This document shows, in pieces, positions 2,679 to 11,509 of a DNA stretch of 64,000 nucleotides. The position numbers and the translations under genes were made by a program. Numbering within the stretch: position 1 is the stretch's first letter; every line of letters begins with the position of its first letter. Source of the stretch: Alphaproteobacteria bacterium (GTDB lineage Bacteria > Pseudomonadota > Alphaproteobacteria > GCA-2731375); assembly GCA_965232515.1 (NCBI GenBank), contig CBDDPY010000002.1:6272001-6336000 (forward strand), written 5' to 3'. The notes under the pieces are model-generated. The model searched no databases and had not been told where the DNA came from. It worked only from the letters and a program-made list of their open reading frames with translations.

Positions 2679-2732
2679 TCAGGGCGTACGAAACAGCGAG
2701 GCGGCCGCGCGCAGGCGGCCGAAATCGCTCCT

Positions 2733-2894
2733 CCGTTCTCTTCCATCCGGACTATCACCGTCGGCCTCGGAATCGCACCGAGTCTGCTGACCCTTCCAGA
2801 CGGGCAATTGAACTGGCCGCTGAAAGGCGCTCGCGGGCTTGAGCGCTGGGCGCTCACACCGCCGGTGGGGACTTCCACCCCGCCCCGAGAACGT
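2733..2894 (-). promoter_or_regulatory. FMN riboswitch (RFN element)
   Basis: Minus strand: TTCTCGGGGCGGGGTGGAAGTCCCCACCGGCGGT...AGCCCGCGAGC...GTCAGCAGACTCGGTGCGATTCCGAGGCCGACGGTGATAGTCCGGATGGAAGAGAA, the conserved RFN blocks, upstream of ribH. Confidence 0.95.
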
Positions 2895-3058
2895 GCCGCG
2901 CGGATCGGCGCGACCGGGGAACTGTAGCGGCGGTTGTCGGGATTGTCGACAGCCCAGTAAACAAACGGCCGTTCTTAAAGATACTCCCGCTGGGCACGAA
3001 GCGACGTCCCGCGGTTGCCAGCGCTATTCACGTCGAGCGACCGATCGGTCGGGTCGAT

Positions 3059-6400: not shown

Positions 6401-7951
6401 CTAAAGCTTTGCCTTCTCTACCCGCAATCCCTTGAAGACGCTGAAGCACATCAGCAGCAGCACGAGCGCGAACGGAAAGCCTGTGGCGATGGCGGCTGCC
6501 TGCAACGAGCCCAGTCCGCCGCCCAGCAACAGCGCGATGGCGACCAGGCCCTCGAAGATGCACCAGAAGATGCGCTGCGCCACCGGCGCGTCGATCTTGC
6601 CGCCGGCGGTGATGGTGTCGATCACCAGCGAGCCGGAGTCGGACGAGGTGACGAAGAAAACGATCACCAGCGTGATGCCGATAAACGACAGCACGCCCGA
6701 CATCGGCAGCGGTTCCAGCATCTTGAACAGCGAGAGTTCGGGCGCCCAGGTCTCGATGGTCTGCGTGACGCCGGTATAGCCGTCGTTGACGAATTGGCTG
6801 ATGGCCGAACCGCCGAAGGCGTTCATCCACAGGATCGAAACGACGGTCGGGATAATCAGCACGCAGAAGATAAACTCGCGCACGCTGCGCCCCTTCGACA
6901 CCCGCGCGATGAACATGCCGACGAACGGCGACCAGGAAATCCACCAGGCCCAGTAGAACGTGGTCCAGCCGTGCATGAAGTCGGTGTCCTCGCGGCCGAT
7001 CCAGTTGCTGAGCGGCACCAGGTTCACCGCGTAGGCGACGGCGCCCGTGAAGAAGCCCTGCACGATATCGAGCGTCGGTCCAACGGCGATCACGAAAACC
7101 AGCAGCAGGAAGGCCAACACCATGTTGATCTCGCTGAGCCGTTTCACGCCAGCGTCGAGGCCGGCGAGCACGGAGACCAGCGCCACGGCCGTAATGCCGA
7201 GGATCAGGAGAACCTTGGTGACATCGGTGACGGGAATGCCGAACAGATAGTCCAGGCCGGCGCTGGCCTGCTCGGCACCGAAGCCAAGCGACGTGGCAAG
7301 GCCGAACAGCGTCGCGAACACGGCCAGCGTGTCAATGACATGGCCGAACCAACCCCAGACCGCGTTACCGAACACCGGATAGAACGCGGACCGGATACTC
7401 AGCGGCAGGCCGTAGTTGTAGCAGACGAGCGCCAGCGCCAGGGCGACGACGGCATAGATCGCCCAGGGATGCAGGCCCCAGTGGAAGATCGTCGCCGCCA
7501 TGCCGAGCGAGCGGGCGGCGGCCGGATCGTCGCCGCTCATGCCGAGCGGCGGGTTCTGGAAGTGGAAGACCGGTTCCAGGACGCCGAAGAACATCAAGCC
7601 GATCCCCATGCCGGCGGCGAACAGCATGGCGAACCAGCCGGGATAGGAATAGTCAGGCTTGGCGTCGGGACCGCCGATCCGGACCTTGCCGAGCGGCGAG
7701 ACGATCAGGACCAGGCAGAACAGCACGAAGATGTTGCCGGCGATCATGAACACCCAGTCGAACGTCGACGTCAACCAGGGCCGCAGCGCGCCGAAGAACG
7801 CCGCCGATCCCTCCTGGAACATCAGAACGAAGATCACGAAGGCGACAATGATCACGCCCGAAATCAGAAAGACGGGGTTGTGGATGTCGAGGCCCAGTAT
7901 CCGGATATTGTCCTGACCGACCTCATAGTCGGTGGCGTCGATGCTGCTCAT
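6401..7951 (-). CDS. BCCT family (betaine/carnitine/choline) transporter
   Basis: WFAMLFAAGMGIGLMF, FHWGLHPWAIY, WTTFYWAWWISWSPFVGMFIARVS, FFVTSSDSGS; start set at ATG 7951 after GGAGG. Confidence 0.95.
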   Translation of the reverse strand: MSSIDATDYEVGQDNIRILGLDIHNPVFLISGVIIVAFVIFVLMFQEGSAAFFGALRPWLTSTFDWVFMIAGNIFVLFCLVLIVSPLGKVRIGGPDAKPDYSYPGWFAMLFAAGMGIGLMFFGVLEPVFHFQNPPLGMSGDDPAAARSLGMAATIFHWGLHPWAIYAVVALALALVCYNYGLPLSIRSAFYPVFGNAVWGWFGHVIDTLAVFATLFGLATSLGFGAEQASAGLDYLFGIPVTDVTKVLLILGITAVALVSVLAGLDAGVKRLSEINMVLAFLLLVFVIAVGPTLDIVQGFFTGAVAYAVNLVPLSNWIGREDTDFMHGWTTFYWAWWISWSPFVGMFIARVSKGRSVREFIFCVLIIPTVVSILWMNAFGGSAISQFVNDGYTGVTQTIETWAPELSLFKMLEPLPMSGVLSFIGITLVIVFFVTSSDSGSLVIDTITAGGKIDAPVAQRIFWCIFEGLVAIALLLGGGLGSLQAAAIATGFPFALVLLLMCFSVFKGLRVEKAKL

Positions 7952-8218
7952 GCTTCCGTCCCTCCGCAGGTGTGGGGGCGGCGAGCAAGATTCGCTCTTA
8001 TGCGAACGGCCGCCTCCAACTTCTTTGTTATTTTCGACCAGAGACGCCTGTGCGCTCCGACGCGGTCGTCGAATTGGTACTGCGTGACAGTGAACGATGT
8101 TATGTCGCGCGCGCTGACGCAAGTCGTTCAAAAAACGACGAAGATTGTCTATTCGCGAAGTCGAACCGAACCTGTGACCGTTGCGTGATCGCTGCACGCG
8201 AGACGACGGCCTCTTCGT

Positions 8219-9034
8219 TTACGCGAGAGGCGTTTCGCTGCTGATGTTGGAAAGATCGCCAAGTTGGCGTTCGTCGAGGTTGTAGAGCACATCGATCAGG
8301 CGTACCCGCAGGCTGCCCGGTCCCGCCGCCTCGGTTGCCGCCAATTGTCCGGCAACGCCCATGATGGCGAGACCGTCGACGGTAGCCGCCAGGGGAGCCG
8401 CGTTTACGGCGCAACAAGCGCCGATCAGGCAGGTGAGCGCGCAACCGAGCGCCGTGACCTTGGTCATCATGGGATCGCCGCCGCCGACGGCGATCACGTC
8501 GCGTCCGTCGGTCACATAGTCGATAGCGCCGGTCACCGCGACCACGGCGCCCGTGCTGGCGGCAAGCGCGCGTGCCGCGTCGACGGCTTCCTTCGAGGCG
8601 TGCGCGGAATCGACGCCCGAGGCCCGGGCAACCGCGTCGTCGCTCAATGTCATGATCTCGGAGCCGTTGCCGCGGATGACCGTCGGCCGCAGCGCGCAGA
8701 GCCGGCCGGCAAGCTCGCGCCGAAAACGGGTGCCGCCGACGCCGACCGGATCGAGCACCCAGGGTTTGCCGTTGTTCACCGCCGCAGTCGCCGCGGCCTG
8801 CATGGCCTCGGCCCGGTCCGCCGACAACGTGCCGATATTGACGGTGAGCGCGTCGGCCTTGGCGACGAACTCCTCGACTTCCTCGATGGCCTGCACCATG
8901 GCCGGCGAGGCGCCGACCGCCAGCATGACGTTGGCCGCCAGGTCCATGGCGACGAAGTTGGTGATGTTGTGGACCAGCGGCGTTCGCTGGCGGATTGCCT
9001 GTAGTGTCTGCCAGGGACTTGCGTCTGATGTCAC
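8219..9034 (-). CDS. thiM: Hydroxyethylthiazole kinase
   Basis: PLVHNITNFV, VGASPAM, VNIGTL, PWVLDPVGVG, VIRGNGSEI, VTALGCAL, GPGS motifs; GTG start; downstream of TPP riboswitch. Confidence 0.95.
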   Translation of the reverse strand: MTSDASPWQTLQAIRQRTPLVHNITNFVAMDLAANVMLAVGASPAMVQAIEEVEEFVAKADALTVNIGTLSADRAEAMQAAATAAVNNGKPWVLDPVGVGGTRFRRELAGRLCALRPTVIRGNGSEIMTLSDDAVARASGVDSAHASKEAVDAARALAASTGAVVAVTGAIDYVTDGRDVIAVGGGDPMMTKVTALGCALTCLIGACCAVNAAPLAATVDGLAIMGVAGQLAATEAAGPGSLRVRLIDVLYNLDERQLGDLSNISSETPLA

Positions 9035-9050
9035 GGCTTTCGCCCCCGGT

Positions 9051-10163
9051 TCACCCGGCGGATCGCAATTGGGCATCCAGCACGGCATGCCGCGCGACCC
9101 GACCCCAGGCGACCGAGCGACGGCGCGCTGACATGTAGGATTCGTAGATCTGCCGCGTCGCTGCGTCACCGGCGGCGGCCTCGGCCAAGACCTCATCGGC
9201 GGCGGCGCGGGCGGCGGCCAGAACGTCGTTCCCGAAGCGCACCAGTGTGATGCCGTATTTCTCTTCGATGCCGTCCAGCGCCAGAGCATTCATCCAATCG
9301 GCCTCGGCCATGCCGCGGGCGTTCTCGGCTTCGCAGACGGCGCTGACAATTTCACGCAGGTCGGCGGGCAGCGCCTCGTAGGCCGCGCGATTGACCAGGC
9401 ATTCGGCCGAGCCGTTCGGCTCGTGAAAGCCCGGCCAGTGATAGAACTTGGCGGCCTTGGCGAGGCCCAATCCGATATCGCTCCAGGGGCCGAGGAATTC
9501 GGCGCCGTCGATCACGCCGGTTTGCAGCGCCGGCAGAATCTCGCCCGGCGGCAGGCTGACCGCCGTGGCGCCGAGCCGGCGCATGACCTCGCCGCCGAGA
9601 CCGGGCATGCGGTACTTCAGGCCCTTGAGGTCGTCGAGGCTGCGGATCGCCCTGATGCACCAGCCGCCCATCTGCATGCCGGAATTGCCAGCCAGAAACG
9701 GTTTCACGCCAAACGGCGCGTAAAGCGCGTCCCAGAGTTCCTGGCCGCCGCCCTGATAGATCCAGGCATTGTGTCCGTCCGGCGTCAGACCGAACGGCAC
9801 CGCGGTGAAGAACGGGCTTGCCTTGACCTTGCCGGCCCAGAAGAACGAGGCGCTGTGGCCCATCTGGGCGACGCCGCGGCGGACCGCGTCGAACACTTCG
9901 AAGGCGGGCACCAGCTCGCCGGCGGCATAGAGCTTGACCGTCAGCCGGCCGCCGCTCATCAGCGTAATGCGCTCGGCGATGCGGCGCGCCGTGGTGCCGG
10001 GACCCGGCGCGTTCTTCGGCCAGGACGTCACCAGGTTCCAGGCGTAGCGGTCCTGGGCGACGGCCGGCGTGGCGGCAATGGCCGCGGCGCCGGCCGCGCC
10101 TGCGCCGAGCAGTGCGCGGCGATCTATCGGGGGGAATGACGGCGGAAGGCGTCGGCGCGACAT
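9051..10163 (-). CDS. TRAP transporter substrate-binding protein (DctP/TakP-like) with Tat signal
   Basis: DRRALLG Tat signal, WNLVTSWP, MSGGRL, AGELVPAFEVFDAV, GNSGMQMGGW, GLKYRMPG, PGFHEP. Confidence 0.92.
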   Translation of the reverse strand: MSRRRLPPSFPPIDRRALLGAGAAGAAAIAATPAVAQDRYAWNLVTSWPKNAPGPGTTARRIAERITLMSGGRLTVKLYAAGELVPAFEVFDAVRRGVAQMGHSASFFWAGKVKASPFFTAVPFGLTPDGHNAWIYQGGGQELWDALYAPFGVKPFLAGNSGMQMGGWCIRAIRSLDDLKGLKYRMPGLGGEVMRRLGATAVSLPPGEILPALQTGVIDGAEFLGPWSDIGLGLAKAAKFYHWPGFHEPNGSAECLVNRAAYEALPADLREIVSAVCEAENARGMAEADWMNALALDGIEEKYGITLVRFGNDVLAAARAAADEVLAEAAAGDAATRQIYESYMSARRRSVAWGRVARHAVLDAQLRSAG

Positions 10164-10220
10164 GGTTAAGGTCTCCCTAATGGGGGAGCCGGCCATCGCA
10201 GAAGCTTTTCGGTCTTTTGC

Positions 10221-10301
10221 GGCCGCTCCCTGCGCTGGCATGACCCAGATCAGGTTCGATGGGTGTGTTCTCAGCCCCCGTACGAGGGGCACCCCAGCCA
10301 T
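10221..10301 (-). promoter_or_regulatory. TPP riboswitch (THI element)
   Basis: Minus strand: GGCTGGGGTGCCCCTCGTACGGGGGCTGAGAACACACCCATCGAACCTGATCTGGGTCATGCCAGCGCAGGGAG with canonical GCTGAGA, ACCC, GAACCTGA and TGCCAGCG-AGGGA blocks. Confidence 0.95.
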
Positions 10302-10531
10302 TGACGATGCAAAAATGACAGCTCGCCCCGGTGCTGTCAAAGCAAGAGAATTGCTGGCCTGGATTGAACGCGGCGGAGGCTGTTTCCCGCGGTTTTCCTG
10401 TCCTGGGGGGTCACGGTTTCTTGAACGGCGGTTGTTTTGATCTTCGGGCAGGTTAGTCTCACTTCAACGACGCGCGGCGTCCAACGGGCGCCGGAAAATG
10501 TCGTGCGTGTCGAGCAGGAGATAGGGCTGCC

Positions 10532-11509
10532 ATGCTGATCAAACGTCCACGCGGCTGGGAGATGCCGGAATCGGAAGCGACGCCGGAATCGGTGTTTCTG
10601 AACAGACGTCGCTTTATCAAGGGCGCCGGGCTGGGCGCGGGCGCGATTGCCGTCGGTACGCCGCTGCTGATGTCGTCGGGCAGTTCCGATGCCGCCGATG
10701 CAGATCCGTCTGCCGAGCTTTATCCGGTGATGCGCAACCCGGCCTACAAGCTCGATCGCGACATCACCGACGAGATGGTCGCCAGCACCTACAACAACTT
10801 CTACGAATTCGGCTCGCACAAGCGGATCGCGCGGGCGGCGCAGAAGCTGAAGATCCGGCCCTGGACGGTGGAACTGGCCGGCATGGTCGAGACCGAGCAG
10901 ACCATCGACATCGACGCGCTGTTGCGCAAGATGCCGCTGGAGGAACGGCTTTACCGGCATCGCTGCGTCGAGGCATGGGCCATGGCCGTGCCCTGGTCCG
11001 GCTTCCCGATGAAGGCGCTGGTCGATCTGGCGCAGCCGCTGTCGGGGGCCAAATACGTCGTCATGCAGACTTTCCTCGATGCCGACATGGCACCGGGCCA
11101 GAAGCAGTTCTGGTATCCCTGGCCCTATGTCGAGGGCCTGACCATCGAGGAAGCGACGAACGAGCTCGCCTTCCTGGTGACGGGGATCTACGGCAAGCCG
11201 CTGCCGAAGCAGTTCGGCGCGCCGCTTCGCCTGGCGGTGCCGTGGAAGTACGGCTTCAAGTCGATCAAGTCGATCGTGCGCTTCGAGTTCACTGACCAAC
11301 GGCCGGTCAGCTTCTGGGAAGAGATCCAGGGCAAGGAATACGGGTTCTGGGCGAACGTGAACCCCGAGGTGGCGCACCCGCGCTGGAGCCAGGCGACAGA
11401 GGAACTGATCGGTACTGGCAAACGCGTGCCGACGAAGCTGTTCAACGGCTACGGCGAGTTCGTCGCCGATCTCTACAAGGGCAAGGAAGACGAGCGCCTC
11501 TGGGCCTGA
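10532..11509 (+). CDS. msrP: Protein-methionine-sulfoxide reductase catalytic subunit MsrP (YedY)
   Basis: Tat signal NRRRFIK, YNNFYEFG, ERLYRHRCVEAW, GAPLRLAVPWKYGFKSIKSI, EYGFWANVNP, HPRWSQA. Confidence 0.95.
   Translation: MLIKRPRGWEMPESEATPESVFLNRRRFIKGAGLGAGAIAVGTPLLMSSGSSDAADADPSAELYPVMRNPAYKLDRDITDEMVASTYNNFYEFGSHKRIARAAQKLKIRPWTVELAGMVETEQTIDIDALLRKMPLEERLYRHRCVEAWAMAVPWSGFPMKALVDLAQPLSGAKYVVMQTFLDADMAPGQKQFWYPWPYVEGLTIEEATNELAFLVTGIYGKPLPKQFGAPLRLAVPWKYGFKSIKSIVRFEFTDQRPVSFWEEIQGKEYGFWANVNPEVAHPRWSQATEELIGTGKRVPTKLFNGYGEFVADLYKGKEDERLWA

Follow-up and report, generated by a model that had tools for sequence, protein, structure and literature searches.

An orphan TRAP solute-binding protein gene recurrently linked to thiM and a TPP riboswitch in Alphaproteobacteria: a candidate receptor for thiazole-precursor salvage

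A riboswitch for thiamin pyrophosphate (TPP), a gene encoding a DctP-type solute-binding protein (SBP) of the tripartite ATP-independent periplasmic (TRAP) class of transporters and the thiM gene for hydroxyethylthiazole kinase lie side by side on a stretch of 64,000 nucleotides (hereafter the window) from an alphaproteobacterium (GenBank assembly GCA_965232515.1, contig CBDDPY010000002.1). The genome holding the window, hereafter G000, has 7.39 Mb and is 96% complete, and the window corresponds to G000:C2:6272001-6336000. The subject of this work is the DctP protein of this locus (hereafter the query) and its possible role in the salvage of thiamin precursors. The features of the locus, in window positions, are as follows.

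10210..10306, minus strand: TPP riboswitch aptamer (THI element), RF00059
10164..10209, minus strand: inferred expression platform, 46 bases from aptamer to ATG, read from the sequence
9051..10163, minus strand: dctP-like gene, ATG at 10163, TGA at 9053-9051, 370 aa, PF03480
roughly 10053-10163, minus strand: signal peptide, N-terminal part of the dctP product
9035..9050, minus strand: intergenic spacer ACCGGGGGCGAAAGCC, 16 nt, from the dctP stop to the thiM GTG
8219..9034, minus strand: thiM (hydroxyethylthiazole kinase), GTG start at 9034, 271 aa, PF02110

The aptamer scored 66.3 bits against RF00059 (gathering score 54.3; E 8.1e-11; model positions 1-105 of 105), and extends 5 nt beyond the end first assigned to it (10306 instead of 10301). 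A genome-wide search of G000 found it again as one of three TPP riboswitches. The thiM product lies above the curated equivalog cut-off of NF006830 (303.3 bits, cut-off 180) and scored 260.2 bits against TIGR00694 (cut-off 256.4) and 259.1 bits against PF02110; the spacer in front of it holds a G-rich stretch that is a potential ribosome-binding site. No dctQ, dctM, thiD or thiE gene is present within the operon. The original prediction, made from the letters alone, had described the locus in just these terms (a TPP riboswitch, a DctP exported by the twin-arginine translocation (Tat) route and carrying the motif GLKYRMPG, a 16-nt gap and thiM, with no dctQM, thiD or thiE), and the Rfam and Pfam matches, together with a reading of the sequence, agree with it on every item.

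The query matched PF03480 with 150.6 bits and the TRAP_S1 model NF037995 with 62.1 bits (cut-off 50), and in Pfam and NCBIfam scans it was hit by DctP/TRAP models only and by none of the known thiamin-pathway transporter families (ThiBPQ, ThiXYZ, ThiT, ThiW, ThiU, ThiV, CytX and PnuT). Its N-terminus, MSRRRLPPSFPPIDRRALLGAGAAGAAAIAATPAVAQ (MSRRRLPP...RRALLGAGAAGAAAIAATPAVAQ), is a twin-arginine signal, of which the R15 R16 pair is invariant across a 52-sequence alignment of relatives. The nearest solved structures, with phmmer E-values from 3.6e-80 to 3.8e-65, are 7ug8 (with alpha-ketovalerate), 5cm6, 4pet, 4yic/4yzz and TakP (2hzk/2hzl). An AlphaFold (AF2) model of the query (predicted local distance difference test score, pLDDT, 89.4) has a long C-terminal helix at residues 334-369 and superimposed on these structures with target-normalised template-modelling scores (TMt) of 0.91-0.96 at 32-42% identity. 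The query is TakP-like in sequence and in its predicted fold, including the long C-terminal helix. Arg185, in the motif GLKYRMPG, aligns with Arg177 of TakP, the residue that clamps the carboxylate of the ligand.

TRAP receptor genes usually stand next to their membrane components in G000, which has 43 DctP-family and 51 DctM places. Only three of the 43 DctP genes lack a DctM gene within 5 kb, and the thiM-linked gene is among them, the nearest DctM gene being 27 kb away. Because the other 40 have a DctM gene within that distance, the orphan status of this dctP is unusual in its genome. One further orphan DctP gene is found at C2:5180692-5181477 (L111).

Linkage of dctP to thiM was surveyed in an even sample of 401 Alphaproteobacteria, G000 included. 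A thiM gene (PF02110) was found in 39 of them, and the flanks of all 39 loci were inspected, DctP being sought by tblastn, other genes by Pfam and riboswitches by Rfam. Ten of the 39 genomes, from at least seven families, have a same-strand DctP gene, with a product 46-100% identical to the query, inside a thi operon; in four of the 29 others (G063, G066, G169 and G194) the thiM contig is shorter than 5 kb, so that a neighbour could have been missed. A scan of metagenomes gave 79 loci, of which five encode the residue signature of the thi-linked proteins described below and 74 the canonical signature of TakP. All three contigs with the former signature and usable flank hold thi genes, which brings the number of thi-linked loci to 13 (10 sampled genomes and three metagenome contigs), whereas none of the fetched flanks of the 74 canonical loci does. 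Gene orders, including that of G024, a genome of the same genus as G000, are listed below (RS, TPP riboswitch).

G000: RS-dctP-thiM
G024 (same genus): RS-dctP at a contig end
G070: RS (52.5 bits, just below the gathering score)-dctP-thiM
G095: RS-thiM-dctP
G426: RS-thiM-thiD-dctP
G201 and G278: RS-thiM-thiE-thiD-dctP
G340: RS-thiM::thiE fusion-thiD-dctP
G136: thiM-thiE-thiD-dctP, contig beginning inside thiM
G181 and G327: dctP-thiM-thiE, with no riboswitch even at E<=1
L130 (metagenome): RS (71.3 bits)-thiM-thiE-thiD-dctP
L151 (metagenome): thiM-thiE-thiD-dctP
L131 (metagenome): thiD-dctP

The thiD and thiE genes of loci L097, L099, L104 and L108 were called from reading frames and Pfam matches, and the DctP genes of L097 and L101 were placed by tblastn coordinates. 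A TPP riboswitch scores above the gathering threshold in six of the ten linked genomes and also in G024; the remaining four comprise G070, with its sub-threshold match, two genomes without a riboswitch and one cut at the contig end. DctQ and DctM genes are absent from all 13 linked loci, and 26 of the 74 canonical metagenome loci have TakQM adjoining. The linkage, which the original prediction had allowed might be peculiar to one genome, is thus not unique to G000. Narrower searches returned fewer cases: among 33 genomes of the same order, an orthologue of the query was found only in the same-genus genome, the other matches being paralogues of 36-57% identity, and a single-protein scan of genome contigs gave two loci only, one of them in the same-genus metagenome-assembled genome. 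The DNA pattern encoding GH[ST]A[SA][FL]FW, a motif of the clade, occurred at four places in the 401 genomes, three of them the thi-linked genes of G000, G070 and G278; it missed seven of the ten known carriers and is too strict for a census. The fourth place, in G333, is a chance match surrounded by stop codons and with no DctP homologue. A DctP gene of G373, whose product is 41% identical to the query, was likewise not counted: it encodes the canonical signature, falls outside the clade and is convergent to RS-thiM-thiE. In that genome (L083 1257-4271, plus strand) the canonical TakP-like gene is followed by one for a xanthine/uracil-family (NCS2-type) permease (PF00860), with no DctQM, which is an unusual combination for a TRAP receptor.

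A maximum-likelihood tree built from 85 proteins of the TakP family separated 16 thi-linked or signature-bearing rows from the 69 others with support of 97 (ultrafast bootstrap, in a run whose bootstrap was not fully settled) and 96 (SH-aLRT), and none of the 44 rows with adjacent TakQM fell among the 16. A quick tree of 65 rows gave the same branch with an SH-aLRT of 98. The thi-linked proteins make up a single, well-supported clade inside the TakP subfamily of alpha-keto-acid-binding proteins. Because the clade signature is present in all of the 120 best matches from a search of 5.8 billion proteins, the clade can be taken to be large. Its members are very probably receptors for thiamin salvage.

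The thiamin genes of the carriers were then compared. The other two TPP riboswitches of G000 are placed as follows.

TPP riboswitch 1: before genes for an ATP-binding cassette (ABC) ATPase, a permease and an NMT1/THI5-like binding protein, a ThiXYZ-type pyrimidine importer
TPP riboswitch 2: before a gene for a ThiD-NUDIX fusion

The fusion gene (Phos_pyr_kin and NUDIX domains, 431 aa) lies at G000:C2:6798532-6799827 (L006 6532-7827, minus strand), directly 3' of its riboswitch. ThiE-type genes are two in number, and ThiC was not found in G000; because of this absence the genome must import the pyrimidine half of thiamin. Genes thiS and thiG share one open frame at G000:C2:1753675-1754409 (L007 5658-6719; Pfam ThiS and ThiG). 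They have no TPP riboswitch, and thiO, thiE and thiC are all missing beside them. The best ThiO match in G000 reached 137 bits, below the curated cut-off of 250.8, and neither ThiH nor Thi4 was found in the genome. Because thiS-thiG is present without a ThiO above the cut-off, ThiH or Thi4, de novo synthesis of the thiazole half by G000, for which this ThiG would need a glycine-imine substrate, is uncertain.

Among the ten other carriers (G024 and nine from the sample), a real ThiG match (E<=1e-98) was found only in G024 and G181, the other eight giving partial matches of 19-31 bits only; thiG, the absence of which the original prediction had proposed to check, is present in G000 itself and was not found in most of its fellow carriers. 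ThiC was found only in G278, and Thi4 in none of the 11 carriers, G000 included. Because they lack ThiG and ThiC matches, most carriers appear to be double auxotrophs that keep ThiM, ThiD and ThiE.

TPP riboswitches were inventoried in six genomes (G000, G070, G095, G201, G278 and G340). Apart from the one of the dctP operon, those of G070, G095, G201 and G278 precede genes for ThiZ/ThiX, NMT1-type ThiY or thiC, and G340 has no other. In five of the six genomes ThiXYZ-type genes or thiC thus cover the pyrimidine half, G340 having no such TPP-controlled gene, and no thiazole source was found under the other TPP riboswitches of the six. DctP is then the only unassigned transport component in the inventoried regulons, and the thiazole half would have no source in them except what DctP imports. 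G278 has thiC under its own riboswitch, no thiG, and DctP still in the thiM-thiE-thiD operon. These regulons carry more weight than the absence of ThiG. On these comparisons, which support the original prediction, the ligand of the clade is quite probably a thiazole precursor, captured for ThiM.

The strongest competitor is import of some other thiamin-related compound: thiamin itself, a precursor of the pyrimidine type, or a degradation product that is carboxylated. It would account for the position of dctP directly after thiD, at the end of the operon, in seven of the 13 linked loci, and for the need of a pyrimidine source in the nine of ten other carriers that lack thiC; G000, G024 and G181 have thiG and no thiC. 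Yet thiM is in the operon at every locus with a visible upstream part, whereas thiD is absent from the operon in G000, G070, G095, G181 and G327, and the thiC-less G000, G070, G095 and G201 have a separate ThiXYZ-type or NMT1 pyrimidine importer under TPP control. G278, which makes the pyrimidine under riboswitch control and lacks thiG, carries the DctP nonetheless, and thiamin is a cation while the conserved arginine clamp points to a carboxylate. Such a ligand is therefore unlikely.

The binding pocket bears on the nature of the ligand. TakP holds pyruvate through a salt bridge to Arg177 and a hydrogen bond from Tyr100, with a hydrophobic cavity around the rest, and its Na+ ion is bound by Gln156, Glu214, Glu240 and the carbonyl of Trp215 (PMC1839085). 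These contacts were transferred onto the query via the 2hzk alignment (offset +8), and 11 clade members were compared with 51 other members of the family.

Arg177 equivalent: Arg in 11/11 of the clade; Arg in 50/51 of the others
Glu214 equivalent: Glu in 11/11; Glu in 49/51
Tyr100 equivalent: Phe in 10/11; Tyr in 51/51
Tyr99 equivalent: Phe, Leu or Val in 11/11; Tyr in 49/51
Trp215 equivalent: Phe in 10/11; Trp in 49/51
Ile47 equivalent: Pro in 11/11; Leu in 46/51
Pro243 equivalent: Gly in 11/11; mostly Thr, Ser or Ala
Gln156 (Na+ ligand) equivalent: Gln in 4/11; Gln in 51/51
Glu240 (Na+ ligand) equivalent: Glu in 7/11, Lys in 4/11; Glu in 51/51

In query numbering the clade signature consists of Pro55, Phe108, Phe223 and Gly251, with Arg185 retained. 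The clamp arginine is present in all 11 clade members and in all of the 120 best database matches, so the arginine that the original prediction had stressed proves to be a constant part of a remodelled pocket. In the query itself the equivalents of Tyr99 and Tyr100 are both Phe, and the Tyr100 contact of the keto-acid site is lost. When 330 alignment columns were ranked by divergence between the clade and its relatives, the top ten included four of the 15 pocket positions (hypergeometric p about 5e-4), and two more of the ten directly flank pocket positions. Retention of the carboxylate clamp in a pocket that seems otherwise retuned fits a carboxylated ligand other than a simple 2-oxo acid. 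Away from the TakP ligand residues, four of the 12 most clade-specific columns (284, 288, 289 and 290) lie on one face of the helix 267-296; in the model this cluster of residues 284-290 (window about 9294-9314, minus strand) could be a dimer or docking surface.

These comparisons also bear on the idea that the protein is an ordinary TakP receptor for 2-oxo acids of the pyruvate type, brought under TPP control to serve, for instance, when TPP-dependent dehydrogenases stall. The nearest structures are all keto-acid binders (7ug8 of alpha-ketovalerate, TakP of pyruvate), and the query keeps R185, Q164, E222 and E248. The tyrosine that hydrogen-bonds the pyruvate carboxylate, however, has given way to Phe in 10 of the 11 clade members and is kept by all 51 others. 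The clade does not conserve the Na+ ligands either (Gln in 4/11, Glu changed to Lys in 4/11), and the divergence is concentrated in the pocket. None of the canonical-signature relatives (74 from metagenomes and 51 from genomes) is thi-linked, and import of a 2-oxo acid at low TPP would bring no evident benefit. We consider this explanation improbable, more so than another thiamin-related ligand.

Among thiazole precursors, the best candidate for the clade is the carboxylated form of hydroxyethylthiazole (HET), cHET. As a thiazole-2-carboxylate, cHET would present a ring nitrogen where a keto acid has its carbonyl oxygen, N=C-COO- being isosteric with O=C-COO-. Paerl et al. report that sub-picomolar cHET supports growth of E. 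coli without thiG, whereas about micromolar HET is needed, and they suggest entry of HET by low-affinity routes; E. coli and picoeukaryotes use cHET at concentrations in the picomolar range or below (PMC5899164). The same source describes ThiM as required for use of cHET in Ostreococcus, which upholds, for that organism, what had been assumed of ThiM in the original prediction (PMC5899164). Operon context, phyletic pattern and pocket chemistry make cHET specifically a tentative choice, with a chance of about one half or a little less.

As to a membrane partner, G000 encodes exactly two TakP-family binding proteins, both orphans, and two DctQ-DctM pairs without an adjoining binding protein. One of these pairs, at G000:C2:902203-904347, is of the TakQM type (Q 180 aa, M 532 aa), and its homologues (M 65-77% and Q 49-60% identical) directly adjoin TakP-family SBP genes at ~30 loci of other genomes. 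The second orphan TakP-family SBP, encoded at G000:C2:1685915-1686946 (L072 5889-7058, minus strand), is 51% identical to the query, and gene content suggests, as the simplest arrangement, that both dock on the one TakQM. A TakM homologue (E<=1e-60) is present in nine of the ten other carriers. In G136, G201, G340 and G426 it adjoins a canonical SBP, in G070 a canonical SBP lies ~1 kb upstream of it, and in G095 the best homologue has no SBP within 1.5 kb. It seems somewhat likely, from these gene contents, that the clade works with a TakQM unit encoded elsewhere in the genome. The claim that a DctQM from another locus serves the query has thereby gained a candidate, C2:902203-904347, with the partnership itself read from gene content.

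The second orphan SBP carries the canonical signature LYYQREWVET and its gene stands beside genes for a biopterin-dependent aromatic amino acid (phenylalanine-hydroxylase-like) hydroxylase and a D-2-hydroxyacid dehydrogenase; it may be an aromatic 2-oxo-acid receptor using the same orphan TakQM. The second orphan DctQ-DctM pair, at G000:C2:333314-335228 (L109 4315-6228, plus strand), has no SBP gene within 5 kb and lies beside a gene for a TauD-family dioxygenase.

A further rival is that the orphan SBP feeds no transporter and instead senses or chaperones a thiamin-related compound in the periplasm, for example through a chemoreceptor or sensor kinase; SBPs that signal are known (PMC8050422). 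This would agree with the lack of an adjoining membrane component at 13 of 13 linked loci and of a close TakM homologue in G278. It is very unlikely, given that the operons hold only salvage enzymes (thiM, thiE, thiD), whose action requires that the compound has entered the cell, that most carriers have neither thiG nor another candidate thiazole importer in the TPP regulon, and that one TakQM pair without an adjoining SBP exists in G000 and another in G095.

Regulation of the operon was read from its leader. An anti-Shine-Dalgarno stretch, GGCCGGCUCCC, lies at 10194-10184, and the Shine-Dalgarno sequence GGGAG at 10177-10173, with 9 nt between its end and the ATG. The anti-Shine-Dalgarno stretch is able to base-pair with the aptamer's 3' strand, GGGAGCGGCC (10230-10221), the fold of 10182-10232 having -22.7 kcal/mol; without the aptamer strand, CUCCC (10188-10184) pairs with GGGAG in a hairpin that alone has -9.9 kcal/mol. 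Because the anti-Shine-Dalgarno stretch can pair either with the aptamer or with the Shine-Dalgarno sequence, the leader suggests a translational OFF switch operated by TPP. An unconstrained minimum-free-energy fold of the whole leader showed neither the aptamer nor a clear switch (z -0.71). A scan of 7800-10600 found no promoter-like site, and two terminator-like sites against 2.5 expected by chance.

Transcripts were sought in public data. In three RNA-seq runs of one study (X1-X3), assembled contigs ~96% identical to the window were found. One of 946 nt covers 8713-9658 and bridges the dctP/thiM junction, another, at 10042-10369, spans the aptamer plus the 5' end of dctP, and contigs of X1-X3 also cover 8000-8551, from inside thiM past its stop. 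These contigs are compatible with a single dctP-thiM transcript, for which they provide weak evidence, since assembled contigs do not mark transcript ends and may stem from carried-over DNA; of the predicted co-transcription, then, one contig across the junction speaks in favour.

Taken together, the observations fit a two-gene thiazole-salvage module turned off by TPP. At low TPP, the riboswitch would leave the first gene with an accessible ribosome-binding site, and the product, a periplasmic, Tat-exported TRAP receptor of TakP-type ancestry with a remodelled pocket, would capture an exogenous anionic thiazole precursor, cHET being the best candidate. The precursor would be handed to a TakQM-type unit encoded elsewhere, for which G000:C2:902203-904347 is the candidate. 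After import, the thiazole would be phosphorylated by ThiM and joined by ThiE to hydroxymethylpyrimidine pyrophosphate (HMP-PP), the pyrimidine half being supplied through the separately riboswitch-controlled ThiXYZ-type importer and ThiD-NUDIX. In its widest form the proposal is that the clade provides the missing high-affinity bacterial uptake of cHET, evolved from 2-oxo-acid binders into a plug-in receptor that shares TakQM and marks thiazole auxotrophy in many Alphaproteobacteria; so broad a statement is possible but falls somewhat short of an even chance.

Several points weigh against thiazole salvage as described. Genomes G000, G024 and G181 have thiG, and thiazole import is not obviously needed there. 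ThiG was found in 192 of the 401 sampled genomes (209 without a match; the tally includes G270, flagged unpublished, which enters no other claim) and in eight of the 39 thiM-bearing genomes, so its absence from eight of ten carriers is only a modest enrichment over the class background, a contrast too weak for a statistical claim among related genomes that are not independent. Adjacency to thiD in seven of the 13 loci does not separate thiazole from pyrimidine, and a sequence by itself cannot tell cHET from HET or from another thiamin-related acid. The query, moreover, retains the TakP Na+ and keto-acid residues Q164, E222, E248 and R185, with which binding of a 2-oxo acid may be compatible in its case. 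For G278 no TakM homologue turned up at E<=1e-60. Finally, co-transcription rests on one assembled contig of a related strain, in which DNA carry-over is possible.

Thiazole salvage by a TRAP receptor may be set against known systems. The query resembles TakP of Rhodobacter sphaeroides (2HZK/2HZL) and 7UG8, 5CM6 and 4PET in fold, in the arginine clamp, in the Glu214 equivalent and in the long C-terminal helix, and the membrane unit with which its relatives pair is likewise of the TakQM type. Unlike TakP it has Phe/Phe for Tyr99/Tyr100, Phe for Trp215, Pro for Ile47 and Gly at the Pro243 equivalent, and the Na+ site is not conserved across its clade; unlike the TakP relatives examined, its gene stands in a thi operon under a TPP riboswitch, with no dctQM adjoining. 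ThiXYZ with its binding protein ThiY is likewise a riboswitch-controlled, binding-protein-dependent salvage importer of half the thiamin molecule, but serves the pyrimidine half through an NMT1/THI5-like protein and an ABC transporter, whereas the clade has a DctP fold, TRAP coupling and, as proposed here, the thiazole half as its cargo. The E. coli thiMD riboswitch controls translation initiation by sequestration of the Shine-Dalgarno sequence. The present locus is similar in the position of a TPP aptamer before a salvage operon containing thiM and probably, from the pairings above, in Shine-Dalgarno sequestration; it differs in that the first regulated gene encodes a transporter component and no thiD is in the operon.

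ThiU, like ThiW, is a thiazole transporter predicted from thi-operon and riboswitch context, and the two are integral membrane proteins (ThiW an energy-coupling factor (ECF) S-component, ThiU a permease) described mainly outside Alphaproteobacteria. The clade shares with them a proposed thiazole uptake for ThiM, but the query is a periplasmic TRAP receptor whose arginine clamp suggests a carboxylated ligand. For ThiW the prediction is found in PMC6429828. The transporters listed in Table 1 of a study of marine vitamin B1 are ThiB, ThiT, ThiY, ThiV, CytX, YkoF, a nucleobase-type permease and Omr1, and that table holds neither a thiazole or cHET importer nor a TRAP protein (PMC10881298); it agrees with the earlier statement that known thiamin transporters are not TRAP-type. 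Full-text searches of the literature gave no paper in which a TRAP transporter or a DctP protein is connected with thiamin, thiM, thiazole or cHET, and no cHET importer, in a corpus that leaves most subscription journals (such as that of the 2002 comparative-genomics paper on the thiamin regulon) and supplements outside, so that an earlier mention is possible. The parts (TRAP receptor, TPP riboswitch, ThiM) are familiar; the proposed specificity, the proposed role in salvage of B1 precursors and the free-standing architecture are absent from the literature searched. Two orphan structured RNAs, the fcbT1-I and fcbT1-II motifs, are on record upstream of genes for TRAP SBPs of the fcbT1 type (TakP family, COG4663) (PMC6429828); they are unrelated to the TPP element and show repeated RNA-level control of the TakP-type SBP family.

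Vitamin B1 is not synthesised by many bacteria and algae of aquatic habitats, which subsist on its precursors, and the clade offers a purifiable protein family with a sequence signature, which makes the question of the cHET importer directly testable. If true, the proposal would supply a marker gene for use of thiazole precursors in genomes and metagenomes, a clear instance of a TRAP receptor whose gene stands away from those of its membrane unit, a unit probably shared with further receptors, and an example of a keto-acid pocket retuned to a heteroaromatic acid.

Neighbouring features of the window complete the description. Upstream, the operon is bordered by a divergent molybdopterin oxidoreductase gene. 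Downstream, ~267 nt past thiM, lies a gene for a BCCT-family (betaine/carnitine/choline) transporter (6401..7951, minus strand; PF02028, 604.5 bits); a simple scan placed no terminator-like site between it and thiM, and no BCCT gene was seen at the other thi-linked loci scanned. Farther along, a flavin mononucleotide (FMN) riboswitch (RF00050, 107.9 bits) is located at window positions 2731-2896, minus strand.

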